Shown piece by piece: positions 6,234 through 25,675 of a stretch of 64,000 nt of DNA. Each line of letters opens with the position of its first letter. Position 1 is the first letter of the stretch. The position numbers and the translations under genes were made by a program. The notes under the pieces are model-generated. The model made no database searches. It was not told where the DNA came from and saw only the letters and a list, made by a program, of their open reading frames with translations. Origin of the DNA: Chloroflexota bacterium (lineage in GTDB: Bacteria; Chloroflexota; Dehalococcoidia; Lucifugimonadales; Australimonadaceae); assembly GCA_028874795.1 (NCBI GenBank), contig JAPPHT010000056.1, positions 75,560-139,559 on the forward strand, in the 5' to 3' direction.

Positions 6234-8399
6234 ATGACCACCTACCGCGGCCAGGGCATGGCCCGCATGGAGGACGAACGGCTGCTGCGCGGCGGCGGCA
6301 CGTTCGTCGACGACATCCAACTGGACGGCATGCTCCACGCCGCGGTGCTCCGCAGCACGGAGGCGCACGCCCGCATCCGATCGATCGACACTTCGGCCGC
6401 GCTTGCAAGTCCCGGTGTCGCCGTCGTCTACACCGGCGCGGACCTGGACGGCGTCGTGCCGGACATCGGCGCGATACGCCGCGAGGGCATGGGCGAGACG
6501 CCCGTCCCCGAGCACCCCGTGCTGGCGAAGGGCCGCGTCTGCTACGTCGGCCAGCCCGTCGCCCTCATCGTGGCCTCGACGCGAGCGCAGGCGTTCGACG
6601 CGCGTGACCGCATCGCCGTCGACTACGAGCCGCTCCCGCCCCTGCTCGACCCGCGCGAATCGGCGTCGGACGCCGCACCCCTCCACCCCGACATCGGCAC
6701 GAACGTCGTGATGCGCACGGAGGCGGGCGCGGGCAACGTCGCCGAGGCGTTCGAGAACGCCGACGAGATCGTCGAGGCCTCGTACGAGGTCCCCCGCCTC
6801 GTTGCGATGCCGATGGAGACCCGCGGCATCGTCGTCGCGCCGGACGCGGAGAGCGGACGGGTCACGGTGTGGACGTCCACGCAGGTGCCGCACCGCGTCA
6901 AGGCGTTCCTCGCGATGCTCCTTCCGGGCGACGTCGACGTGCGCGTCATCACCCCGGACGTCGGCGGGGGCTTCGGGCGCAAGATCGAGGTTTGGCCGGA
7001 AGAGGTCGTAGCGGCGTACGCGGCGGTACAGCTGGGCGCGCCGGTCAAGTGGACGGAGCAGCGCTCCGAGAGCACGCTCGCTTCGCACGGGCGCGGATTC
7101 ACCGCGGACGTGGAGGCGGCGGTGCGCTCGGACGGCACGATGCTCGGCGTCCGCATCCGCATGCTGGCAGATATGGGTGCCTACTTCCTCACGTCCAGCG
7201 GCGGGCCGCTGGGCAACGCCGTGCAGCGCGTCGCCGGGCCGTACGCCATCCCCGCGATGGACGTGGAGTGCCTCGGCGTGACGACGAACCGCCCTCCCAC
7301 GGGACCCTACCGCGGCGCGGGCGGGCCCGAGGCCGCCGTGCCCATCGAGCGCATCATGGACGACGCCGCGCGGCAGCTTGGCATGGACCCCGCCGAGATA
7401 CGACGCCGCAACTTCATCCCCGCCGACGCCTTCCCCTACCAGACCGCCACCGGCCTGCTCTACGACTCCGGCGACTTCCACACCGCGTTCGACCGCGCGC
7501 TCGGCATGGCCGGCTACGCGGGTCTACGCGAGCGGCAGGCGTCCGAAGGCGGCCCGTTCCGCACCGGCATCGGCGTCGCGACAGTCACCAAGGCGTCCGG
7601 CGGCAAGGCGGGTGTGCGCAAGAGCCTCACTCGCGTCGAGATGAAGCCGGACGGACGCGTGATCATCGTCACGGACGTATCGCCGCATGGCCAGGGCACG
7701 GCCACGTCGTTCTCGCAGATCGCGGCGGACACGCTCGGGATCGCCCCGGAGATGGTCGAACTCCACCACGGCGACACCGACGAGCTCGCGTCGGGCGGCG
7801 GCACGACGTCGAGCCGGGGCCTCGCGGTCGGCGGCAACGCGGCCTACCTGGCGCTCCAGGAGGTCAAGCGTCGGCTCGATGCCGCGGGCGGCGTCGTTCC
7901 CGCCAACGGCATCACGGTGGAACTGGAGTGGGAGCTGCCCGCCAACCCGTTCGGCTTCGCCGCCCACGTCGCGGTCGTTGAGCTGGACGAGGGCACCGGC
8001 GACGTGCGCCTCACGGACTACGCGGCAGTGCACGACTGTGGCCCGATGATCAACCCCGTCATCGTGCGCGGGCAGATACAGGGCGGCATCGCGCAGGGCA
8101 TCGGCCAGGCGCTGAGCGAGGGGATGCTCTACTCGGCGGCGGGCCAGCCCCGGACCGCCAGCTTCATGACCTACGGCATCCCCATTGCGGAATCGCTGCC
8201 CGCGTTCCTGCTGGAGAACCAGCAGACGCCCTCGCCGACCAACCCGCTGGGCATCAAGGGCATCGGCGAGCTGCCGACGGTCGCCGCGCCGGTGGCCGTC
8301 ACGAACGCGGTCGCGGACGCCCTCGCCCGCTCCGGCGCCGACGTGAGCGGCGTCGACATGCCGCTCCTCACCGAGCGCGTCTGGCGCGCCCTGGGGTGA
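6234..8399 (+). CDS. Xanthine dehydrogenase-family molybdopterin-binding large subunit (CoxL/CutL-like)
   Basis: R.ED.RLL.G.G.FVDD, DVGGGFG.K, PYRGAGGPE, GQG..T, GQIQGG, GIKGIGE. Confidence 0.9.
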   Translation: MTTYRGQGMARMEDERLLRGGGTFVDDIQLDGMLHAAVLRSTEAHARIRSIDTSAALASPGVAVVYTGADLDGVVPDIGAIRREGMGETPVPEHPVLAKGRVCYVGQPVALIVASTRAQAFDARDRIAVDYEPLPPLLDPRESASDAAPLHPDIGTNVVMRTEAGAGNVAEAFENADEIVEASYEVPRLVAMPMETRGIVVAPDAESGRVTVWTSTQVPHRVKAFLAMLLPGDVDVRVITPDVGGGFGRKIEVWPEEVVAAYAAVQLGAPVKWTEQRSESTLASHGRGFTADVEAAVRSDGTMLGVRIRMLADMGAYFLTSSGGPLGNAVQRVAGPYAIPAMDVECLGVTTNRPPTGPYRGAGGPEAAVPIERIMDDAARQLGMDPAEIRRRNFIPADAFPYQTATGLLYDSGDFHTAFDRALGMAGYAGLRERQASEGGPFRTGIGVATVTKASGGKAGVRKSLTRVEMKPDGRVIIVTDVSPHGQGTATSFSQIAADTLGIAPEMVELHHGDTDELASGGGTTSSRGLAVGGNAAYLALQEVKRRLDAAGGVVPANGITVELEWELPANPFGFAAHVAVVELDEGTGDVRLTDYAAVHDCGPMINPVIVRGQIQGGIAQGIGQALSEGMLYSAAGQPRTASFMTYGIPIAESLPAFLLENQQTPSPTNPLGIKGIGELPTVAAPVAVTNAVADALARSGADVSGVDMPLLTERVWRALG

Positions 8400-8409
8400 G
8401 GGGGACTGA

Positions 8410-8518
8410 TCCCCTCTCCTGGGGGAGAGGGTTAGGGTGAGGGCCCTGCGGGGTAGCGTGGGATGGGCTGGGGGCTGGTCCCTTCCCCCTCGATGGGGAA
8501 AGGTTAGGATGGGGGTGA
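8410..8518 (-). repeat. Two CCCTCACCCTAACCCTCTCCC...GGAGAGGGGA-type REP-like elements
   Basis: Copies at about 8410-8445 and 8479-8518; degenerate copy at about 6151-6182. Confidence 0.65.
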
Positions 8519-8624
8519 ATGGTGAGCCTGGCAAAGTTGCTACGTGTCCGCTGTGACACCCGCCCCTTGCGGTTCCCGTCCCCCGCCCTGCTACCATGCT
8601 CATACGCGCCCTGAAGGAGACGCC

Positions 8625-8848
8625 GTGACGACTGCACCGGCAGAGGACGTACCCCGCTACTTCCACGATTACGCCTTGGAGAACGAGCGGCAGCACAAGG
8701 AACTGCGCGATTACATCGACCGGGTGAGGATCGAACTCGGCGACCACCTCGGCAGGGTGGAAAGCAAACTCCGCATGATCAAGGCCATCAGCCTGGGCAT
8801 ATTCGGCACAGTGCTGCAGCGGCCTCCAAGTACGTCATCGGCTGGTGA
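8625..8848 (+). pseudogene. Small coiled-coil/C-terminal TM protein with a 1-nt deletion near 8815
   Basis: AAGGAG RBS and GTG start; MTTAPAEDVPRYFHDYALENERQH...IKAISLGIFGTVL then AAASKYVIGW* in a shifted frame, matching paralog 10169-10357. Confidence 0.75.
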
Positions 8849-9022
8849 ACCCACCGGAAGGCAGTGGCCTCATTTGGCCTCATTCCGGCCTTGTTCACGC
8901 TCGAACCGGCCCCGAAACGCCCCACCGTGGAGCCATCGGAACCCCGGAACGCACGAGTAAATGAGGCCAAACGATGCCAGATGCTGCCACAGTGACGGCG
9001 CTCGTCTGAAGGGAGGTCTCCT

Positions 9023-10042
9023 ATGGCTATCGCCCCAACCGGCCCGATCGACGCTGACGGCCACGTTCGCGACGACGACCGGCGCATGCGGCGGTTCATC
9101 GCGCCACCCTTCGACAAGCGCTCCCCGCTGGGCATCAGCGCCAACGATGGCTTCGACCGCCACCTGCAGGGCACGCTGGGCCTGTTCGACGTCGATGCTC
9201 CAACCTGGCAGCAGGCCCTGGACGAGGGCGGCCTCGCGGCGACCGTGCTCTTCCCGACCGTGGGCCTCCGCAACGGCCAGCTCCGGGAGCCCGACTTCGC
9301 GATCGCCCGCTGCCGCGCCTACAACGACTGGCTGCACAGCGAGTTCCTCAGCGTCGACGAACGGTTCAAGGGTGTCGCGCTCCTCCCCGTGCAGGACCCG
9401 TCGGCCGCTGCCGAGGAGCTCCAGCGGACAGTGCGCGACCTCGGGATGGTGGGAGGTATGCTCCCGGAGGGACCCTACGTCTACGGCGACTCGCGTTTCG
9501 ACTCCATCTACGCCGAGGCCGAGCGCCTCGGCTGCCCGATCACCATCCACGAAGGCGGGAACGTCTGGGACAGCGTTTACCACCACCTCTTCCCCCAGTT
9601 CGCAGAGGTGCACACCCTCGGCCATCCCTTTGCGCAGATGCGGCACCTCACGAGCGTCCTGTGCGAGGGCGTGCTCGTACGCTTCCCGAGGCTGAAGATA
9701 GGCTTCCTCGAGGCCGGCTGTACCTGGGTCCCATTCCTCCTGGACCGGATGGACGAGCGCTTCCGGTTACGAGGCGAACGGGAGATGCCGGCCCTGACGA
9801 GGCCGCCCAGCGACTATGTCCGCGACGGCAACGTCTACTTTACCTGCGAGGCCGAAGAGACCCTGCTCCCTGAGACGCTTCGCGTCATCGGCGACGGCGC
9901 CGTGATGTACGCCACGGACTTTCCGCACTGGGATGGCGAGTACCCTGAGAGCCTGCATACGCTCATGGCCCGCGCAGACCTCACCGAGGAGCAACGCGCT
10001 CGGATCACCGGCGGCAACGCCAGGGAGTTCTACGCTCTCTGA
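9023..10042 (+). CDS. Amidohydrolase family 2 protein
   Basis: IDADGH, RAYNDW, TIH, FLEAG, YATDFPHWD. Confidence 0.9.
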   Translation: MAIAPTGPIDADGHVRDDDRRMRRFIAPPFDKRSPLGISANDGFDRHLQGTLGLFDVDAPTWQQALDEGGLAATVLFPTVGLRNGQLREPDFAIARCRAYNDWLHSEFLSVDERFKGVALLPVQDPSAAAEELQRTVRDLGMVGGMLPEGPYVYGDSRFDSIYAEAERLGCPITIHEGGNVWDSVYHHLFPQFAEVHTLGHPFAQMRHLTSVLCEGVLVRFPRLKIGFLEAGCTWVPFLLDRMDERFRLRGEREMPALTRPPSDYVRDGNVYFTCEAEETLLPETLRVIGDGAVMYATDFPHWDGEYPESLHTLMARADLTEEQRARITGGNAREFYAL

Positions 10043-10168
10043 AGAGCACCGTTGTGACACGCGCCCCTTGCACGGCCGTATCCCGGCTCTGTATCGTTTC
10101 TGTGTACTCTTTGCCACAAGGGTGGCACAGCCTATCGATGGGCATGTCTGGACGCTGATGGAGACGAC

Positions 10169-10357
10169 ATGACGACTGGACCGGCAGATGACGAGCGCCA
10201 GCACATCGACTTGGGGGATGCAATCGACCAGATGGGGACCGAACTAAGCGATGACTTCGATGCGGTGATACGCGAGCTCCGCATTATCAAGGCGATCCAC
10301 CTGGGCATATTCGGCACCGTGTTCGTAGCCGCGTCCAAGTATGTCATCGGCTGGTGA
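10169..10357 (+). CDS. Small coiled-coil/C-terminal TM protein
   Basis: GGAG RBS; paralog of 8625-8848. Confidence 0.7.
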   Translation: MTTGPADDERQHIDLGDAIDQMGTELSDDFDAVIRELRIIKAIHLGIFGTVFVAASKYVIGW

Positions 10358-10389
10358 ATCGGCAGAAACGGCAGACCCAACACACGACA

Positions 10390-10419
10390 GACGGCGCACC
10401 ACCGCAGCGGTGCGCCGTC
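10390..10419. terminator. Hairpin between convergent genes
   Basis: GACGGCGCACC-N8-GGTGCGCCGTC. Confidence 0.6.
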
Positions 10420-10456
10420 CGTTCTCTACTCAGGTCCTGTTGTCGCTCGAAGACCC

Positions 10457-10918
10457 TTACTTCGCGCCGAAGAACTTGCCTTCGATAGCCACGGGGTCGA
10501 CGTGGAAGTTGTCCGGGGAGTCGCCGGGGATGGGGTTGCCGTCCGGCGTCAGCCGGGTCTCGGGGCCCTCGCTGCTGTTCCGCTGCGCGCCCACGCGGAG
10601 CATGAACAGGTTCCGCCCGCCGGTGTTGAGGTAGCGGTAGTACGCGCCCTTCGGGATCATGATGCCCTCGTACTCGCCGAGCACCTTCCCGTTCGCGTTC
10701 TCGTCGAAGAACGTGACCTCGCCCTCCAGCACGATGAACGCGTGGTCCTCGTTCGTGTGCGCGTGCACGGCGTTCTCTCCGCCCTCCGCGTTGACCTTGA
10801 AGCTCAGCCAGAGCAGGTCCGTGCGCGCAAGGTCGATGTTCGTGCGGCCCGCCGACAGGTACGGCCCCTTGATGGAGAACGTGGACGTCTGCGGCCTCGT
10901 CTGCGTCTCGGTGGTCAT
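10457..10918 (-). CDS. Cupin domain protein
   Basis: GGENAVHAHTNEDHAFIVLEGE; IPKGAYY. Confidence 0.85.
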   Translation of the reverse strand: MTTETQTRPQTSTFSIKGPYLSAGRTNIDLARTDLLWLSFKVNAEGGENAVHAHTNEDHAFIVLEGEVTFFDENANGKVLGEYEGIMIPKGAYYRYLNTGGRNLFMLRVGAQRNSSEGPETRLTPDGNPIPGDSPDNFHVDPVAIEGKFFGAK

Positions 10919-17225: not shown

Positions 17226-17480
17226 GTGAGACGTAAGCACCGGATCATCCTTGCCGCGGTGTTCAAACGCCCCACGCAGGCAGGCATCCGCTGGGACGAC
17301 GTCGAATCGCTGCTGCTCGCCTGCGGTGCAGATAAGGAGGAGCGCGCCGGTTCGCGGGTGTACTTCGAATTGAACGGCGTAGCCGCGCACTTCCACCGGC
17401 CCCACCCGGAGAGGGAAGCGCGGAAGGCCATGGTTGAAGCAGTGCGACGATTCCTCACCGAGGCAGGCATAGAGCCATGA
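17226..17480 (+). CDS. hicA: HicA family toxin
   Basis: IRWDDVESLL..G..ERAGSRV..FHRPHP. Confidence 0.9.
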   Translation: MRRKHRIILAAVFKRPTQAGIRWDDVESLLLACGADKEERAGSRVYFELNGVAAHFHRPHPEREARKAMVEAVRRFLTEAGIEP

Positions 17481-17809
17481 TGCAGTACAAGGGCTACCGT
17501 GCAGCAGTGACCTTCGACGACTCCGCCAACGTCTTCCACGGCGAGGTGGTGGGCACTCGCGACGTCATCACGTTCGAGGGAGGCTCGGTCGAGCAGCTGC
17601 AGAAGGAGTTCGAGTTCTCCATAGACGACTATCTCGCCGTCTGCGCGGAACGGGGGCGGGAACCGGACCGGCCTTACTCCGGGAAGATACCGCTGCGAGT
17701 GAGCCCACGGGTACACCGCGACGCAGCCGCCGCGGCGAAGGCCCAGGGCAAGACGCTTAACGCATGGCTCGCCGAAACGGTGGAGCGCGCAGCCGCGCAG
17801 ACCCTCTGA
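17477..17809 (+). CDS. hicB: HicB family antitoxin
   Basis: MQYKGY..FHGEV...RDVITF..SIDDYL..YSGK..LRV. Confidence 0.92.
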   Translation: MMQYKGYRAAVTFDDSANVFHGEVVGTRDVITFEGGSVEQLQKEFEFSIDDYLAVCAERGREPDRPYSGKIPLRVSPRVHRDAAAAAKAQGKTLNAWLAETVERAAAQTL

Positions 17810-17941
17810 GTACTTACCGACCGGACCTTCGCTCCGCAGCATTGCCCGGTCCTGTCGCGACGGGTGTAAATTGCGTCATACCAGCCCCCTTCGAGGGGCC
17901 CAGGCTCCCGCAGATGCTCACTCCCCCGGAGGAGGACCGCG

Positions 17942-19186
17942 ATGCTTTCGCAACAGGACAACGAACGCTACACGCGCGTCGGCAAGGGCACGCCGATGGG
18001 CGAGCTGATGCGCCGCTACTGGCACCCCATCGCCGGGACGTCGCAGATGATGGGCGAAGACCCCACCATGGCTGTGCGCCTCCTCGGCGAGGACCTCGTC
18101 CTCTACCGGACGCCTGACAACGAGTTCGGCCTCATCGAGCAGCGCTGCGCCCACCGCGGCGTCGACCTGCTCTACGGCATCCCGGAGAAGGAGGGCATCC
18201 GCTGCTGCTACCACGGCTGGCTGTACGACTTCAACGGCCAGTGCCTCGAGCAGCCCTCCGAGCCGACGGGCAGCACGTACAAGGACAAGATCAGGATGAC
18301 CGCCTACCCGGTGCAGGAGTTGCACGGGTTGATCTGGGCGTACCTGGGGCCGCAGCCCGCCCCGCTGCTCCCTCGCTGGGACGTCTTCGCGTGGGAGGAG
18401 AACGTCACCCGGCGCATCCAGGCGAGCACGTTGCCCTGTAACTGGCTGCAGTGCGTCGACAACGCGCTCGACCCGACGCACTTCGAGCACCTGCACGGCT
18501 ACTACGGCACGTGGATCAATGCCCAGAAGGGACAGGGCGAGGAGTGGGCCAACCGCCTGCCGCAGCGGGCGAAGCACCACCTGAAGCTCGGCTTCGAGCG
18601 GTTCGAGCACGGCGTCATCAAGCGGCGCGTCACGGCGGGCATCGACGAGACCCACCCCGACTGGCAGACCGGTCACCCGATCGTCTTCCCGTACACGCTG
18701 AAGATAGGCGGCGGCGAGGGCGCGCACCGCTTCCTGCTCCGCGTCCCCATCGACGACGAGCACACCTGGTACGTGCGCTACACCACCACCGTGCACCCGC
18801 CCGGCGCCAACGCGCCCGCGCAGGCGTTCGGCTCCATCCCGGTCGAGGAGCACCCGCTCTACGACGAGAAGGGGCGCCTGGTGAGCACGGACGTGCCGGG
18901 GCAGGACCAGATGACGTGGGTCGCGCAGGGCCCCATCGTCGACCGGACGCGGGAGAACCTCGGCGTGACCGACGCGGGCATCATCCTCTACCGCAAGCTG
19001 GTGGAGGAGAACCTCCGCATCGTCGAGGACGGCGGCGACCCGATGAACACGTTCCGCGACCCCGCGCAGAACGAGTGCATCCTCCTGCCGAACGAGGCGG
19101 CCCCGTTCCCCGGTTTCGACGAGCCCGGCGGGCCGTGGTTCGGCGTCGCGCCGCGCAAGCCGGACGTTGAGGTCTCGCTCCTGTAG
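17942..19186 (+). CDS. Rieske non-heme iron oxygenase alpha subunit (phthalate 4,5-dioxygenase-like)
   Basis: GTPMGELMRRYWHP, CAHR, CCYHGW, DPTHFEHLH. Confidence 0.92.
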   Translation: MLSQQDNERYTRVGKGTPMGELMRRYWHPIAGTSQMMGEDPTMAVRLLGEDLVLYRTPDNEFGLIEQRCAHRGVDLLYGIPEKEGIRCCYHGWLYDFNGQCLEQPSEPTGSTYKDKIRMTAYPVQELHGLIWAYLGPQPAPLLPRWDVFAWEENVTRRIQASTLPCNWLQCVDNALDPTHFEHLHGYYGTWINAQKGQGEEWANRLPQRAKHHLKLGFERFEHGVIKRRVTAGIDETHPDWQTGHPIVFPYTLKIGGGEGAHRFLLRVPIDDEHTWYVRYTTTVHPPGANAPAQAFGSIPVEEHPLYDEKGRLVSTDVPGQDQMTWVAQGPIVDRTRENLGVTDAGIILYRKLVEENLRIVEDGGDPMNTFRDPAQNECILLPNEAAPFPGFDEPGGPWFGVAPRKPDVEVSLL

Positions 19187-19242
19187 GGCCGTTGTCGCCA
19201 CCGACCCCGGCGGACCCGCATAGGGCAGACTATCGCCGGCGC

Positions 19243-19311
19243 CTTCCGGCGCCCCGGCGGACGGAGTTCGCCTGCAGCCCTCGCGAGGGCTACGCCGTAC
19301 AGGAAGCTCAT
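19243..19311 (-). pseudogene. Inverted 69-bp remnant homologous to the 3' end of the YihY gene (24537-24605)
   Basis: MSFLYGVALARAAGELRPPG vs MIFLYGAALARAAGELRPSG; 13 mismatches in 69 nt by manual alignment. Confidence 0.75.
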
Positions 19312-19370
19312 ACTGCCCATCCAGGGTCCGCTCCCCGCACAGGCTCACTCTTGTTGGAGTTCACACGGAG

Positions 19371-20750
19371 GTGAAGCACTTGGAGAGAGAAACCGCACAA
19401 CCGCAGGCGATATCGCTGGACGAGGCCGCGCAGATAGCGGGAGAAGTCAAGGACCTGATCAAGGCCGGTGATGAGCACTCCGCATGGGAGTTGCTCCAGG
19501 GTCTCCACCCGGCCGACATCGGGACCATCCTGGCCGGGCTTCCCTCCAAGAGCAGGGACGCCCTCATACAGGTGATGTCTCCCGACACGGTCGTCTGGAT
19601 ACTGCGACAGATGAACCCGGTGGAAGCGGGGCGGGTGGCGGCCCGGCTTGGGTCGAATATCCTCTCCTTCGCTCTTGACCAACTCCACCCGCGCCAGGTG
19701 CTGGCCGTGCTGGACCACCTTCCCATCCTGCGGGCGCGGGAAGTGGCCCCGTCCCTGGAGTCGCTGGAAAGCACGGAACTGTTCGATTACGCGCCGGACA
19801 CGGCGGGCGCTCTGATGGTCGGCCAACTCCCCACGGTGCGCATCGACCGCCTCGTCAGCGAGGCGCGCGAGAACCTCCGATTGTTGGAGGACATCCGCCA
19901 AAAGCTCACGCACCTGTTCCTGGTTGGAGACGACGGCGAGCTCGCCGGACAGGTCAGCGTGGTCGACCTGGCGCTCGCGGAAAGCGATACCCCGGTCCGT
20001 GCGATAGCCTCGCCGCTCGTGGCGACGGTGACGGTCGATACTCCCGCGCGAGAGTGCGCGCGGCTCCAGCGTCACTACAACGTGACCCAACTCCCCGTGA
20101 CACAGGGTGGGCGTCTGGCAGGCGTCATCCTCGCCGAGCACCTGCTGGGCGCCACGATCGAACTGGACACCCGGCAGATGCAGCAGGTTGCGAACGTCCC
20201 GGGGGAGACGGTTGGCGGCCCCCTGCTGTCCTCGATCCGGACCCGTCTGCCCTGGCTCACGATAAACCTGGGCACCACGTTCCTTGCCGCCGGCACGGTG
20301 GCGCTTTTCGAGTCGACGCTGGCGCAGGTGGTCGTGCTCGCCGCGTTCCTGCCGGTCGTCGCAGGACAGGGCGGCATCGGCGGTACCCAGACGCTCACGC
20401 TCATCGTCCGGGCCATCGCGCTCGGCGAACTCGTCGGCATCGGCGCGCGGCGCCTGCTGGCGCGCGAAGCCCTGCTGGGCCTGCTGCACGGGGTATGGCT
20501 CGGCGTCCTGGTGGCAGTCATAGCAATGCTGTGGAAGCAGAACCCCGGCCTCGGCCTCGTGCTCGGGCTGGCGATGCTGGGCAACATGGTCATTGCCGGG
20601 ACGGTCGGAGCAGGCGTGCCGCTGTTCCTGCGGAGGGCGGGAGTAGACCCGGCAGTCTCGTCCGCGGTGGTGGTCACCACCTTCACCGACGTCTTCGGGT
20701 TCCTGCTGTTCCTCGGCATCGCCAGCGCCTTCATCGGCCTCATCACCTAG
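19371..20750 (+). CDS. mgtE: Magnesium transporter MgtE
   Basis: LHPADI, TAGALM, CBS pair, RLPWL, DPAVSS..VTTFTDV. Confidence 0.92.
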   Translation: MKHLERETAQPQAISLDEAAQIAGEVKDLIKAGDEHSAWELLQGLHPADIGTILAGLPSKSRDALIQVMSPDTVVWILRQMNPVEAGRVAARLGSNILSFALDQLHPRQVLAVLDHLPILRAREVAPSLESLESTELFDYAPDTAGALMVGQLPTVRIDRLVSEARENLRLLEDIRQKLTHLFLVGDDGELAGQVSVVDLALAESDTPVRAIASPLVATVTVDTPARECARLQRHYNVTQLPVTQGGRLAGVILAEHLLGATIELDTRQMQQVANVPGETVGGPLLSSIRTRLPWLTINLGTTFLAAGTVALFESTLAQVVVLAAFLPVVAGQGGIGGTQTLTLIVRAIALGELVGIGARRLLAREALLGLLHGVWLGVLVAVIAMLWKQNPGLGLVLGLAMLGNMVIAGTVGAGVPLFLRRAGVDPAVSSAVVVTTFTDVFGFLLFLGIASAFIGLIT

Positions 20751-20759
20751 AATTGAGTT

Positions 20760-22793
20760 ATGTTCGCAACTCTTCGACCGAGCCCCACGCTGACCGGCGG
20801 CGACGTCCGGCTCAGCCTCCGCATGATGGTGTGGGAGTCGGTTGCATCGGGCGTGCTGTTCAGCCTCGGCAGCGGCGGCTTCATGGCGGCCTTTGCCCTG
20901 GCGCTGGGCGCCAACAACCTGCAGATCGGGCTTCTTGCCGCGCTGCCGTTCGTCTCCCAGGCGATGCAGGTCCCCGGCATCCTGCTCGTGGAGCGATTCC
21001 GCACGCGGAAGGCGATCGGGCTCCTGACCCTGGGCGTGTCGAACCTCTTCTGGATACCTATCGGCGCGGTGCCGTTCCTGCTGCAGACGCCCAGCGCTCC
21101 CGCGGTCACCATGGTGATCGTGCTGCTGGCCGTTCGCGGGCTCTTCTCGCCGGTCTGGGTCACTGCGTGGAGCAGCTGGATACGCGACCTCGTTCCCGCG
21201 CAGATACTCGGGAGTTACCACGGGCGGCGCCTCGCGGTCATGACCGCAGCCATGGCCGTTGTCGGGCTGGGCGCCAGTTTCTTCGTGCAGTGGTGGGAGA
21301 ACGCTTCCGCTCCCGAGGATGCGGTATTCGCCTACTCGTTCCTCCTCTTTGCCGGGGCGCTCACCTTCGGGGTGATCGGCCCTCTCCAAGTGTTGCGGGC
21401 CAGAGAACCCCTCATGCCCGCAACGCCGCAAACCGGAGGCTCTCCGTTCGCAACCTTGCCGGAGCCCTTGCGGGACAGGAACTTCTCACAACTCCTGCGA
21501 TTCCTGTTCGCCTGGAGACTGACCTCCAATCTCGCCATTCCGTTCTTCGCCGTCTACATGCTGGACGTGATAGGCCTTCCGTTGCCGGCCGTGATCGGCT
21601 TCACCGTCCTCAGCCTGGGCACGAACGTCCTGTTCATACGCGTTTGGGGCCCCATGGCCGACCGCCTGGGAAGCAAGACCGTCCTGTCGCTGTCGGCCTC
21701 CCTGTACCTGCTGGTCATCCTCGGCTGGGTGTTCACGCTCAACCCTGACCGTCACGTGCTTACGGTCCCGCTGCTCACGGTGCTCCACGTCTTCGCGGGA
21801 GTGGCGGCGGCCGGGGTGACGCTCACCATCAGTACGCTTGCGCTGAAGGAAGCCCCCGAGGAGAAGGCGACGGCGTTCCTCGGCATGGCAGGAGTGGCTA
21901 CGTACATCGGCGCGGGGCTCGGTCCCATATTGGGCGGCGTGCTGGCCGACTTCTTCGCCTCACGGTCGCTGCGGCTCGACTTCACCTGGACGTCGCCGGG
22001 CAGGGCCGTGGAACTACCGGCGCTCTCGGTGACCGGGTTCGAGTTCCTTTTCCTCATCGCCTTCGTGGCCGGACTGCTCTCCCTGAACCTGCTGGTTGCG
22101 CTCCGCGAGGAGGGCGAGATGCCACGGGAGAGGGCGCTGAGCGAACTGACCGCAGGCTTCGAAGGGCCTCTACGGGCCGTATCGTCAGTGCCGGGCATCG
22201 GCGCTGTGTCTGCTATCTCGTACGGCTATGTCAAGCGGGTGCCTGGAGCGGATGTCGCGATCGGCGTCGCCGCGTACCAGTTGGCGGCATCGACGCAGGC
22301 GGCGGTGGCATCCGCCAGCCGCGGGCGTTCCCTGATCAGGGACGTGGCGAGCGCGGTAGGAGACATCGTGGAAGAGGCTATCGACAGCGGGCAGGACGTC
22401 GCCGTCCATGGCCGCGAGCTTGCCCGCCACGCGACGCGAGGGGCTGTTCAAGCGGGAGAAGACCTCGCCGGCGAGGTGGGCAGAGTTGCTCGCGGCGCTG
22501 TCCGGGGCACGCTGCAGACTCTCGCCCGCTGGCCCGTGTCCGCCGATGAGGCCCTTGCCGGAGCGGGCTATGGCGCCGTGCAGGGCGCCATAGAGGCTGG
22601 AGAGGACCCATCGGAAGCCGCCGCCCAGGCCGTCAGGGCCGCGCGGGAGACCGCCCACGAGTTCGGGATGGCCCCCGCTGAAGCCGCCCGTCTGCTGGCG
22701 GATGGCGCGCTGGACGCAGCAGCAGCCGCGGGAGAGGACGCGCTCGCGAACGTCCGGCAGTCGTTGTCCGGCGAACCCGGAAGGAGCAACTGA
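20760..22793 (+). CDS. MFS transporter with a C-terminal ~200-aa Ala/Gly-rich 22-residue repeat domain
   Basis: About 12 hydrophobic segments, WGPMADRLGSK motif A, then repeats such as ARGAVRGT and GYGAVQGA. Confidence 0.85.
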   Translation: MFATLRPSPTLTGGDVRLSLRMMVWESVASGVLFSLGSGGFMAAFALALGANNLQIGLLAALPFVSQAMQVPGILLVERFRTRKAIGLLTLGVSNLFWIPIGAVPFLLQTPSAPAVTMVIVLLAVRGLFSPVWVTAWSSWIRDLVPAQILGSYHGRRLAVMTAAMAVVGLGASFFVQWWENASAPEDAVFAYSFLLFAGALTFGVIGPLQVLRAREPLMPATPQTGGSPFATLPEPLRDRNFSQLLRFLFAWRLTSNLAIPFFAVYMLDVIGLPLPAVIGFTVLSLGTNVLFIRVWGPMADRLGSKTVLSLSASLYLLVILGWVFTLNPDRHVLTVPLLTVLHVFAGVAAAGVTLTISTLALKEAPEEKATAFLGMAGVATYIGAGLGPILGGVLADFFASRSLRLDFTWTSPGRAVELPALSVTGFEFLFLIAFVAGLLSLNLLVALREEGEMPRERALSELTAGFEGPLRAVSSVPGIGAVSAISYGYVKRVPGADVAIGVAAYQLAASTQAAVASASRGRSLIRDVASAVGDIVEEAIDSGQDVAVHGRELARHATRGAVQAGEDLAGEVGRVARGAVRGTLQTLARWPVSADEALAGAGYGAVQGAIEAGEDPSEAAAQAVRAARETAHEFGMAPAEAARLLADGALDAAAAAGEDALANVRQSLSGEPGRSN

Positions 22794-22880
22794 GCGGGGC
22801 GGTACTCCCCTAGGGCCCCTCTCTCGAAGCAGGTACAATTGAGATTGTGCGCAGATGGCCCTGTGCCCTGGAGAACACGA

Positions 22881-24611
22881 GTGGACCAGTCCCCTACCCC
22901 CACGGAACGCGTTGCCCATCAGGTGAGGGAAACCCTTGCGGGCAACAGGAGCGCCCGTCGCCGGATCACCGGCGCCGTCGTGCGTTCAACCGCGATGGGA
23001 GCGGTACGCGGCACCCGCTGGGTTGGCAGGGGAGCAGGCAGCCTGGCGCGGGAGGCGGTTGAGGGCACGATCCAGGCCGTTGGCGAGATAAGCGGCGAGA
23101 CGAGCGCGTTCGTCAGGGATGCGGTCGTCGGCGTCGTGCAGGGCGCGAGCCAGGTGGTGACGGTCACGACTCCCGCGGTGCGAGAGGTCGTGGTCGGCGC
23201 TATCAGGGGAACGGAGAAGGCGAGCGCCGGGGCAAGCGAAGTCAGCCGCGATGCGGTCGAAGGGGCGATAGTAGGCGCGGTCTCTGTCGGTATCGATGCA
23301 AGCGAGGCAGCGGTCGCGGCGGTCGAAGGCGTCGTCGACGCTGTCGTGGAAACAGGCGGCGACCTGCGTGACGCGGCCCAGGCAACGGTGGGCGGCGTAC
23401 TCTCCGGCGTCGCCGCTGCCGGCGGCGATCTCGCTGCCGCTACGCACGACGCCGCCTACGCCCTCGTCGCCCACGACGCGGTCGCCGAACGGCACGCGGA
23501 CGAGGTCGCAGCTGTAGCGGACAGCACCGTCGACGCGGCGTTCCAGGAAGCCCGGCGAGCCGACGTCGAGACCGGGGAGGTGGTAGCGGCGGCAGCAGCC
23601 GGGGTCGTGGAGGCCGCCTACCGGGTCAGCCGGTCGCACGGAGAGAGCGTACGTCAGTCGGTGATGCGGAGGGTCGTGGGGTCCGGCCTGGCCATCGCCC
23701 CGGGCCTGGAACGGGGGCTCTCTGAGGTCGCGGAGCGGCTCTCGGCCGAGTTGCCCAAGGGTCGCGCGGCGTGGCGCGGTGCGGCTGTTGTCAGGGCGGC
23801 CAAGCTGCTGATCGGCGCGGGCGGCATCGACCTCGCCGGTTCGCTCGCTTACTTCATGGTGCTGTCGCTCCTTCCTTCGGTCGCCCTTGTCATCATGATA
23901 GTGGCTCTCGTCGGCGACCCTGAGGCTATCCGCGAGCGGCTCACCTCGGTCCTCGTCTACTACTTCCCAACGTCGCAGGTCCTGATACAGGAGGCCGTTG
24001 AGAACCTCTTCCGGGGCTCGCTTGCTATCGGAGTGGTGGCGACGGCAAGCATCGTCATAGGCGCCAACGGCCTCTTTTTGGCGGCGAACAGGGCCATCAA
24101 CAGGGTCTTCGGCGTCGGGGTGCGAAGGGCCGTCCAGATAACCGTTGCGCAGGTAACGATCACGACGGTCGTTGTTGTCCTGTTCCTGCTCTCCGTGGGG
24201 CTTACGGCCTCTCTCCAGACGGCCCTGCGTTTCGGAGAGGGGATCGCCGAGACGACCGGTTTCCTCTCCTCCGCCGTGGTGATTACGCTGGGCGTCGTCT
24301 CGACGGTGCTGCCCGCGTTCTTCACCATGGTCGTGTTCGCAGTCGTCTACTTCCGGATGCCGAACGTTCACGTGGAGTGGCGGGACGCCACGTTCGGCGC
24401 GATGGCCGCCATCGTGCTCTTCGAGGCGGGCAAGCACCTCTTCTTCTGGTTCACCGGCTTCGCCAGCCAGCGGAGCGCCGTGTACGGGCCGATCACCTCG
24501 GTGGTCGTCCTGCTGATGTGGGCGTACGCCGCCGGCATGATCTTCCTGTACGGCGCCGCACTCGCCAGGGCTGCGGGCGAACTCCGCCCATCCGGGATTC
24601 GGAAGCGCTGA
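22881..24611 (+). CDS. YihY/BrkB family membrane protein with an N-terminal 22-residue repeat domain
   Basis: AGSLAYF.VLSLLP, AINR.F, VYGPI.SVVVLLMW.Y..IFLYGA; N-terminal AVEG/AVVG repeats. Confidence 0.85.
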   Translation: MDQSPTPTERVAHQVRETLAGNRSARRRITGAVVRSTAMGAVRGTRWVGRGAGSLAREAVEGTIQAVGEISGETSAFVRDAVVGVVQGASQVVTVTTPAVREVVVGAIRGTEKASAGASEVSRDAVEGAIVGAVSVGIDASEAAVAAVEGVVDAVVETGGDLRDAAQATVGGVLSGVAAAGGDLAAATHDAAYALVAHDAVAERHADEVAAVADSTVDAAFQEARRADVETGEVVAAAAAGVVEAAYRVSRSHGESVRQSVMRRVVGSGLAIAPGLERGLSEVAERLSAELPKGRAAWRGAAVVRAAKLLIGAGGIDLAGSLAYFMVLSLLPSVALVIMIVALVGDPEAIRERLTSVLVYYFPTSQVLIQEAVENLFRGSLAIGVVATASIVIGANGLFLAANRAINRVFGVGVRRAVQITVAQVTITTVVVVLFLLSVGLTASLQTALRFGEGIAETTGFLSSAVVITLGVVSTVLPAFFTMVVFAVVYFRMPNVHVEWRDATFGAMAAIVLFEAGKHLFFWFTGFASQRSAVYGPITSVVVLLMWAYAAGMIFLYGAALARAAGELRPSGIRKR

Positions 24612-24817
24612 GGTCGAGGAAACTCAGAGGCGCGTCGCCGCTCAACGGCCCTGAGCGATCCGGCGCTGTTCCAGCCAGCCGACTTCGGCCTCGGTCAGGT
24701 CCTCGTCGAACGGCGTTGTTGCAGGCGTACAACAATGCGCCGCTCAAGTGCCCCGGCACAAGCCCTGGCCGAGGTCCTGATCCTGGACCAGTGTTGCACT
24801 TCAAGCCTGGGTCCACC

Positions 24818-24839
24818 TTCCCGCCTTCGCGGGAACGAC
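24818..24839 (-). repeat. REP-like palindrome (GTCGTTCCCGCGAAGGCGGGAA)
   Basis: Directly after the SDR stop codon. Confidence 0.7.
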
Positions 24840-24844
24840 GGACG

Positions 24845-25675
24845 CTACCCGGCGCCCCGCGCGAGTTGGCGCCAGGCGGCAGTCGCCGACGAGCGTCGCA
24901 GGTTCTCCTCGACGCCGAGGGCCGGGTCCCAGTCGTTGGCGATGATGCGCATCCCGTTGAAGCCGTCCGACTCCTCGGACGCGAGCCAAACGGCGGGCGG
25001 GCCCATGACCTCCGGCTGCACGAGCGCGGAGAAGTCCCGACTCGGGTCGCGGTCGACGAAGTTGGTGTTGGTGCCGCCGCCGGGGAGCAGCGCGTTCGCC
25101 GTGACGCCGGTGCCCTCGAGCTCGGGCGCCATCGCCGCCACCATCGCCTCGTGCGTCGCCTTGCTCGGCCCGTAGGGGATGTTGCGCGTCATCGTATCGA
25201 GGCTGGTCGTGACGCCGATGACGCGGCCCCATCCCCGCTCGATCATGCCCGGCACCGCCGCGCGCGCCATCAGGAACGGGCCGGTCGAGTTCACCGCGAT
25301 CATCCGCTCCCACACCTCCACCGGCTGCTCCCAGAAGCGGGGCGTCCTGTCCGACGGCGGAAGGAGGGATCGGTGGTGCACGCCCGCCAGGTTCACGAGC
25401 ACGTCCAGCCTCCCGTGCGTCTCCACCGTGCTCTGCACTGCGCGCTGCGCCTCGTCCCACCGGCTGGTGTCCAGCACCAGCGTGGAGACCGCGGCGTCGC
25501 CCGCGATCTCGCGGGCCTCGTTGGCCGTCTGCTGGAGCCAGTCGTCCTTGATGTCCAGCATCGCAACCCGGGCGCCCGCGCGGAGCATCGCGAGCGCGAT
25601 CACCCGCCCCATGCCGATGGGGCTGCCCGCGCCCGTCACGAGCGCCACCTTCCCGTCCAAGCGAATGTCAGCCAT
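24845..25675 (-). CDS. SDR family oxidoreductase
   Basis: VALVTGAG..GMG, DVLVN.AG, YGPSK. Confidence 0.9.
   Translation of the reverse strand: MADIRLDGKVALVTGAGSPIGMGRVIALAMLRAGARVAMLDIKDDWLQQTANEAREIAGDAAVSTLVLDTSRWDEAQRAVQSTVETHGRLDVLVNLAGVHHRSLLPPSDRTPRFWEQPVEVWERMIAVNSTGPFLMARAAVPGMIERGWGRVIGVTTSLDTMTRNIPYGPSKATHEAMVAAMAPELEGTGVTANALLPGGGTNTNFVDRDPSRDFSALVQPEVMGPPAVWLASEESDGFNGMRIIANDWDPALGVEENLRRSSATAAWRQLARGAG

Follow-up and report, generated by a model that had tools for sequence, protein, structure and literature searches.

A predicted 22-residue helical-repeat module carried by adjacent MFS and YihY/BrkB membrane proteins beside an MgtE-type channel gene in an uncultured Dehalococcoidia bacterium

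Members of the YihY/BrkB family, among them E. coli YihY and YhjD and Bordetella BrkB, are typically about 290 amino acids in length. A preprint describes YihY as having six transmembrane helices, with both termini in the cytoplasm and no known function, and superimposes E. coli YihY over 290 Cα atoms (10.64898/2026.03.31.715626). The 64,000-nucleotide stretch of DNA analysed here (hereafter, the window) belongs to an uncultured Dehalococcoidia bacterium and encodes a protein whose membrane domain is a clear member of this family, but which carries an N-terminal repeat domain that the typical member lacks. A similar domain is found at the C-terminus of a major facilitator superfamily (MFS) transporter encoded directly upstream, behind a gene for an MgtE-type Mg2+ channel. 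As judged by comparison of sequence profiles, the two domains are one homologous module. Helical-repeat accessory domains on transporters are of a kind already known; the libraries and literature searched appear to contain no description of the repeat family itself, with its 22-residue unit and its partners, or of the association of this MFS clade with Mg2+ channels. The analysis is computational throughout.

The three genes lie head to tail on the plus strand, with 9 nt between the MgtE stop and the MFS start and 87 nt between the MFS and YihY genes. The features are as follows.

19371..20750, plus strand: MgtE-type Mg2+ channel, 459 aa, with N domain, CBS pair and transmembrane domain
20760..22793, plus strand: MFS transporter, whole open reading frame (ORF), 677 aa (ORF table, MFS_1)
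20760..22247, plus strand: MFS membrane part, residues 1–496 (MFS_1, AlphaFold2, Foldseek)
22248..22769, plus strand: MFS C-terminal 22-residue helical-repeat domain, residues ~497–670, eight predicted helices (period, AlphaFold2, hidden Markov models)
22881..24611, plus strand: YihY/BrkB-family protein, 576-aa form with GTG start (P0004, ORF table)
22962..23681, plus strand: YihY N-terminal 22-residue helical-repeat domain, residues 28–267 of the 576-aa form, about 11 predicted helices
23826..24572, plus strand: YihY/BrkB six-helix membrane domain (PF03631, TIGR00765)

The periodicity of both domains was measured by BLOSUM62 autocorrelation against 300 shuffles. For the YihY N-domain z is 8.8 at lag 22 and 5.0 at lag 44; for the MFS C-domain the same lags give 4.9 and 5.8. 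Helical sub-periods appear at lags 4, 7, 11, 15 and 18. An earlier note, made from the letters of this DNA, had reported a period of 22 in both termini and a shared ending VRQS(V/L); the period is confirmed, the 22-mers quoted there are all present, and both window domains do terminate in this way, the part conserved across relatives being V-R. In the YihY domain the 22-residue register is kept for about 10 units with zero indels. A unit motif, R-x-A-V-x-G-A-V-x-G, is common to the two domains when averaged over 98 and 120 family members, respectively, and the best circular shift between the two motifs gives r 0.37, with the next best at 0.29. No tandem repeat of period 66 was found at the DNA level, from which the repeat units would appear to be old and diverged. 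Both domains are acidic (pI 5.0 and 4.9), with one Lys and 5 aromatic residues in each, and their hydrophobic residues are mainly Ala, Val and Gly; the YihY domain has 60 Ala, 48 Val and 33 Gly, against 19 for Leu, Ile and Met together. Such a composition suits tight helix–helix packing and would be a poor fit to an anionic lipid surface.

Several comparisons indicate that the likeness of the MFS C-domain and the YihY N-domain goes beyond mere composition. Smith–Waterman alignment of one domain with the other scored 136, for which shuffles gave a mean of 73.9 (standard deviation 10.0, maximum 112), with 0 of 500 reaching the observed value. Comparison of domain-only family profiles with hhalign returned a probability of 92.9 (E 3.7e-7) and a score of 51.9 over 130 columns, versus 15.1 for a reversed profile and at most 23.0 for 30 column shuffles, so that the more than compositional similarity on which the earlier proposal depended holds in profile comparison. 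The full-length alignments of the two families (A1 versus A2) gave a probability of 95.4 and E 1.7e-8. The two domains are bridged by a family of stand-alone proteins of about 280 aa (A4), which aligns with the MFS family alignment (A2) at a probability of 98.6 (E 1.1e-15, 151 columns), including the terminal V-R-x-(A/S) motif of the MFS domain. The hidden Markov model (HMM) of the stand-alone family matches both window domains, with E 6.6e-53 and, for the MFS C-domain, 3.5e-16. The HMM of the YihY N-domain matches the window MFS C-domain with E 5.2e-9, and reciprocally every MFS C-domain and YihY N-domain in the examined loci is matched by the HMM of the other.

These results bear on whether two unrelated Ala/Val/Gly-rich tails might have come to resemble each other through low complexity or compositional convergence. 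Both tails are rich in these residues, and the BLASTP match of domain against domain weakens from E 3e-14 uncorrected to 1.2e-4 with composition correction. Against this, the profile score lies far over the column-shuffled and reversed controls, and it is this together with the bridging stand-alone family that argues for homology and not composition; convergence is very improbable and largely refuted. Column shuffling also removes helical periodicity, so that this control leaves room for convergence on one repeat pattern.

AlphaFold2 models were built from alignments of 58 rows for YihY and 55 rows for MFS, with mean pLDDT (predicted local distance difference test) values of 77.1 and 81.1, respectively. 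The YihY N-domain is modelled as helices of 14–22 residues joined by turns of 1–7 residues, with block pLDDT of 75–91 except for two blocks at 63 and 68. The MFS C-domain is modelled as eight helices spanning residues 497–670, with pLDDT of 82–94 from residue 550. Each 22-mer is thus predicted to be one helix and turn in a stacked array, not part of one long surface helix, and the tandem stacked helix-turn-helix units of the alpha-solenoid/helical-repeat class are present in the predicted fold. A VIA-align search of 48,161 chains with YihY residues ~60–293 returned 7mwr_B as the top match (Z 14.2, root-mean-square deviation 3.7 over 205 residues), with DHR7 (5cwd) scoring Z 7.7; among natural families none is prominent for the YihY repeat domain. 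Foldseek returned 2 matches to the YihY repeat model at E≤0.001, both of them designed proteins. Complex prediction for the cytosolic part of MgtE with the MFS C-domain and the YihY N-domain gave scores of 0.01 and 0.00, for a mark of 0.32; these runs used three chains with their own alignments, unlike the calibration, and the scores were used neither for nor against binding. In the MFS model a beta-hairpin is seen at residues 403–425 (window 21966–22034), between two late transmembrane helices, and its W410 is invariant across the family alignment.

Neither window repeat domain matches any family in Pfam-A 2025 or NCBIfam 20.0 at E≤0.1, which leaves residues ~490–677 of the MFS protein and some 300 N-terminal residues of the YihY ORF unassigned, and Pfam returned no family above a weak level for 28 stand-alone relatives. 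In sequence-profile searches of the PDB with the repeat, the matches below E 0.01 are to designed helical proteins alone (4uos_A, 2e-7; 7udk_A, 6.7e-5), and the full-length MFS and YihY alignments return nothing at E≤0.01. The nearest clusters in the ESM Atlas are unnamed hypothetical proteins with a score of 0.93, where recognition is below the reliability level and the match is a lead only. Full-text literature searches, with paper supplements outside their reach, returned nothing describing such a domain. The statement in the earlier note that no description was known is in line with these searches, as no Pfam, NCBIfam or natural PDB family names the module.

The breadth of the family was explored by word-indexed protein searches with the two window domains as queries. 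The YihY N-domain found 98 proteins, 97 of which carry PF03631, and the MFS C-domain found 242, with PF07690 in all of the best 120 of the 242; the few named carriers are Chloroflexota or Dehalococcoidia proteins from metagenome-assembled genomes (MAGs). An exhaustive phmmer search with the YihY N-domain against 1.84 billion representatives yielded just 86 clusters at E≤1e-3. Fusion partners were taken from a Pfam scan of 42 proteins from this list. BrkB is present in 7 of the 42, DUF502 in 2 (with the repeat at the C-terminus) and Response_reg in 2 above cut-off (P0261, P0272) and in a further 2 below it (P0247, P0270), the named receiver fusions being from Dehalococcoidia. Most other scanned relatives are stand-alone proteins of 190–310 aa with no family. 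In 26 of 301 genomes sampled from the class, the YihY N-domain finds a match at E≤1e-5; the same-genus genome G287 has no match with either the YihY N-domain or the MFS query.

The repeat and the YihY membrane domain are also found as separate genes. Five loci (L027, L028, L032, L033 and L054) have a separate YihY gene immediately after a stand-alone repeat gene, the first four of them belonging to the 13 stand-alone loci that were retrieved; in L002, L013 and L014 it is a fused YihY gene that immediately follows a stand-alone copy. The occurrence of both fused and split forms, as read from the gene sequences, is a classic sign of two parts that probably work together. Stand-alone copies occur in other surroundings as well. 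At L024:8575-11388 (G137) a stand-alone repeat gene is divergent from a DUF502–repeat fusion of 489 aa, an arrangement seen again at G217:C3:124273-127020, and the repeat pair of L024 and G217 adjoins a type I restriction R subunit and a HAMP histidine kinase. At L035:8345-16364 (G269:C103) the distance between two stand-alone repeat genes is 5 kb; one of them sits between two HSP20 genes, and the other has as its neighbour a Na+/H+ exchanger fused to HTH_17.

In the genome that contains the window (3.33 Mb, 97% complete), 2 of 24,837 six-frame ORFs match the repeat HMMs at E≤0.01, and these are the adjacent MFS and YihY genes. There is a single MgtE, and no CorA match was found in this genome. 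A second YihY paralogue, with an open frame of ~309 aa at G000:C84:119502-120428, is 69% identical in the membrane part and is without the repeat domain, which suggests that the module was recently gained or lost within one genome.

The YihY fusion was sampled at 13 reference-genome loci, all from Dehalococcoidia MAGs (L020 lies outside the MgtE alignment and L018 outside the Pfam list). All three genes are together in one of these (L010), where they are rearranged. No MFS gene is near the YihY fusion in 11 of the 13, and L014 has a 40-residue MFS fragment only, together with MgtE in pieces ~4 kb from YihY. In L005, L011 and L012, MgtE adjoins YihY without MFS. The MFS fusion is present in 7 of the 13 genomes, and MgtE adjoins it in five of the seven (L010, L015, L018, L019 and L020, not L016 or L017). 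In 9 of the 13 genomes, at least one repeat-bearing transporter is thus a neighbour of MgtE (in L014 at ~4 kb); these genes are co-directional, convergent or otherwise arranged.

Some of these loci have peculiarities of their own. The YihY fusion is broken in both L013 (7944-9118) and L014 (2362-4050, 9112-9720), as are MgtE and MFS in L014; these may be pseudogenes or assembly errors. The MgtE homologue beside a distant MFS-repeat paralogue in L018 (6885-7955) and L019 (6927-7895) matches just residues ~134–455 of the window MgtE and is a 356-aa ORF, seemingly without the N domain. At L002:6591-12345 (OY760867.2) a stand-alone repeat gene and a repeat–YihY fusion lie on the plus strand (7983-10599) between phage genes on the minus strand, flanked by a terminase large subunit (phrog_2, E 1e-35) and a portal protein (Phage_portal, E 1.6e-74), and look like opposite-strand cargo in a prophage-like element. 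The idea that the cluster is prophage cargo was rejected, since neither the window nor any other of the retrieved loci contains these terminase and portal genes.

Of 401 genomes in the class sample, 29 carry the MFS family; counted with the window, its loci number 31. Eleven of these loci have a Mg2+ channel gene as neighbour of the MFS gene. It encodes MgtE in three (the window, L038 and L039) and CorA in eight (L032, L042, L043, L045, L047, L062, L063 and L064), and the orientations are co-directional as well as divergent and convergent. Outside the window, 7 of 30 loci have tandem genes for Usp (universal stress protein) next to the MFS gene. In L032, genes for Usp, a K+ channel, CorA and two MFS-repeat proteins stand in a row, with a stand-alone repeat gene and YihY divergent from them. 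The earlier note had suggested that conservation of the three-gene order be examined: L038, which is from the same genus, has the same order as the window at 88–94% identity, and L010 has the three genes rearranged, while most genomes separate the genes and the order is not widely kept. Genes for the MFS-repeat protein and for the repeat with YihY are together in four arrangements (the window and L038; L010; L032; L054). Since the sole two carriers of the window's own genome are adjacent and such genes are found together in four arrangements, a probable functional link between the MFS and YihY repeat genes is supported at the level of gene content and order.

Our preferred reading, which we hold tentatively, is that the repeat is a new cytosolic helical-repeat module for docking or regulation of transporters that lie in a Mg2+/ion-homeostasis neighbourhood. 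The topology of YihY given above, and that of MFS transporters, which puts a C-terminal extension on the cytoplasmic side, would place both repeat domains in the cytoplasm. The repeat would there be a folded alpha-helical, solenoid-like domain, each unit an ~18-residue helix and short turn packed through small residues, and would sit under the cytosolic face of its transporters for protein–protein docking or regulation. It appears to be portable within Dehalococcoidia, as a soluble protein of ~280 aa, at the N-terminus of YihY/BrkB, at the C-terminus of MFS or DUF502 proteins, or joined to receiver domains; attachment to three membrane families as well as receivers fits a protein–protein module at the cytosolic face. 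From the split form, in which the repeat gene stands beside a separate YihY, the stand-alone protein may act as a subunit with YihY, and the receiver fusions suggest that the module can serve as the output of a phospho-relay. The presence of CorA in place of the unrelated MgtE beside the MFS clade suggests that the shared theme is Mg2+/ion homeostasis and not a particular contact, and the operon-like row of MgtE, MFS and YihY in the window would be a local version of a loose neighbourhood made up of MgtE or CorA, MFS, tandem Usp and repeat/YihY genes. The homology, the predicted fold, the fused and split forms and the neighbourhoods are computed results; the cytosolic location (from the topology), binding and a regulatory effect, together with Mg2+ sensing and the substrates of the MFS and YihY proteins, are inferred.

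A number of observations weigh against this reading. In 20 of the 31 MFS loci no Mg2+ channel was detected nearby, and the remaining MFS loci have unrelated neighbours. Short MFS forms without the repeat domain adjoin CorA in 3 of 5 loci (L062–L064), so that the link between MFS and Mg2+ channels requires no repeat domain. The MgtE genes of G302, G305 and G312 are without a repeat gene inside the 19 kb examined (G303 is too fragmented for its MgtE neighbourhood to be judged), and 7 of the 13 stand-alone loci are without an adjoining transporter partner. The genomes are related, so that the counts overstate independence. The fold is a prediction whose structural matches are designed proteins, and helical repeats reach Z ~13 through common arrangement alone, as VIA-align itself warns. 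Lastly, Phasin_2 and Senescence each weakly match 5 of the 28 stand-alone relatives (best E 1.6e-4 and 1.8e-4).

These last matches, along with single matches of Perilipin_2 (E 0.078) and Apolipoprotein (E 0.54) among the same relatives, speak for the suggestion of the earlier note that the repeat is an amphipathic lipid- or membrane-surface element of apolipoprotein, perilipin or phasin type that targets its carriers to a lipid surface or inclusion. The period of 22, with its helical sub-periods, is that of such 11/22-residue repeats (z 8.8 and 4.9), and a compact model is compatible with this explanation given that lipid-free apolipoproteins also fold as helix bundles. The window proteins, on the other hand, give no match at E≤0.1 to PF01442, PF17316, PF09361 or PF06911, and the matches of distant relatives that have printed bit scores are below the gathering cut-offs. 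Class-A amphipathic helices have bulky hydrophobic residues and interfacial Lys, whereas the window domains, with pI ~5, one Lys each and an Ala/Val/Gly face, do not fit a bulky face with interfacial Lys/Arg; AlphaFold2 predicts stacked helices at high confidence (pLDDT 80–91); and integral membrane proteins need no lipid-targeting helix. Lipid targeting is thus not borne out, and we consider it doubtful, ranking it somewhat below the other suggestion of that note, a scaffold for a three-component complex. Such a scaffold would join MgtE, MFS and YihY by hetero-association between the two repeat domains and by docking on the cytosolic domain of MgtE. The scaffold gains from the adjacency of the genome's sole two carriers behind MgtE, at gaps of 9 and 87 nt, from the recurrence of the three genes in L038 and, rearranged, in L010, and from MFS-repeat genes that adjoin repeat and YihY genes in L032 and L054. 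It is nonetheless unlikely, and stands below a docking or regulatory module: of the 7 of 13 genomes with both fusions, 6 keep them far apart or on other contigs, and with CorA instead of MgtE in 8 loci the docking surface would have to suit two unrelated channel folds.

Two further explanations concern what the module might do. The tandem Usp genes that neighbour the MFS family outside the window (7 of 30 loci), and the HSP20 genes and Na+/H+ exchanger beside the stand-alone copies of L035, would agree with a stress-protective hydrophilic helical protein of LEA (late embryogenesis abundant) or chaperone type, shielding membrane proteins against osmotic, ionic or desiccation stress with no specific partner. 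We regard this as improbable, as no LEA family matches the window proteins or the 28 stand-alone relatives, conservation of the sequence is good, with Gly positions that do not vary, the fold is predicted with confidence, and fusions to three membrane families and to receivers suggest a defined partner. More specifically, the repeat could be a new cytosolic sensor or gate on YihY, MFS and DUF502 proteins, responding to Mg2+ or ionic strength through its acidic G-G-D/G-E-D turns and wired to receivers, and the MFS protein could in addition be a so far unnoticed partner of Mg2+ channels, exporting for instance Mg2+ or a counter-ion to offset MgtE/CorA influx. This too is an unlikely proposal, on a par with the scaffold; if true, it would provide the first functional context for YihY/BrkB and for this MFS clade. 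A docking or regulatory module is still the reading to which we give the most weight. YihY/BrkB is a widespread family without a function, and a detachable partner domain would be a handle for pull-downs and structures. In Dehalococcoidia, for which little genetics exists, the presence of one MFS clade next to MgtE or CorA, channels of two unrelated families, and frequently also next to tandem Usp, offers a lead on Mg2+ and ion homeostasis that can be tested.

The family assignments of the three genes are as follows. All Pfam scores of MgtE are above cut-off (PF01769, MgtE, 101.9 bits; PF00571, CBS, 43.9 bits in 2 stretches; PF03448, MgtE_N, 34.5 bits). The NCBIfam equivalog TIGR00400 scores 206.6 bits, under its cut-off of 232.75, and because of this the protein counts as a diverged member whose Mg2+ function is putative. 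The MFS protein scores 71.8 bits with PF07690 (MFS_1; cut-off 33.4), and its model has the 12-helix MFS membrane fold, matching 293 PDB chains at E≤0.001 in Foldseek, with YajR the best at E 9.8e-8; no substrate-specific subfamily of NCBIfam reaches its cut-off with this protein. YihY scores 128.3 bits with PF03631 (cut-off 33.7) over residues 330–578 of a 590-aa ORF and 78 bits with TIGR00765, above the 73.15 cut-off. This ORF, 22839–24611, begins at an alternative TTG start at 22839, which the earlier note had used; the database form P0004 (576 aa, 100% identity) begins at GTG 22881, 14 codons past the TTG.

An Rfam scan of 17500–25500 at E≤1 returned no Mg2+ riboswitch and one chance miRNA match (E 0.55). 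No promoter-like site was found in 18900–25000, and a terminator scan of the same region found one terminator-like site, on the minus strand, fewer than in shuffles. Upstream of the cluster are a Rieske/LigXa-like oxygenase gene at 17942–19186 and, 1.5 kb away, a HicA–HicB toxin–antitoxin pair at 17226–17809 (PF07927, E 1.2e-8; PF05534, E 1.1e-18).

Among known systems, E. coli YajR, which Foldseek ranks first for the MFS model, shows that an MFS protein can have a soluble cytosolic C-terminal domain. This extra domain of YajR is small and is not a helical repeat, and there is no sequence relation to the window MFS (PDB profile search, nothing at E≤0.01). Of the named clusters in the ESM Atlas, DUF6781 (PF20572), itself an uncharacterised family, comes closest, with a score of 0.76 that is under the 0.9 lead level; it matches the distant relative P0264 (E 3.8e-5, 24.1 bits, below the cut-off of 27), and the window proteins give no match. 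The repeats of apolipoprotein A/E, perilipin, phasin and the spartin 'Senescence' domain have in common with the window domains an 11/22-residue helix period, whereas the window domains are acidic and nearly Lys-free, with a small-residue face and a predicted compact stack; we know of no lipid inclusion in this lineage. The best structural matches, and the best PDB sequence-profile matches, are designed helical repeats (DHRs; 5cwd DHR7, 7mwr_B, 7udk_A and 4uos_A), which similarly consist of stacked, idealised and Ala-rich helix-turn-helix units of ~2 × 20 residues. These proteins are artificial and share no common descent with the natural domain, which has, unlike them, a Gly motif, fusions to membrane proteins and a fold known by prediction. 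As a natural sequence whose predicted fold and profile most resemble designed helical repeats, the module may also interest protein designers.

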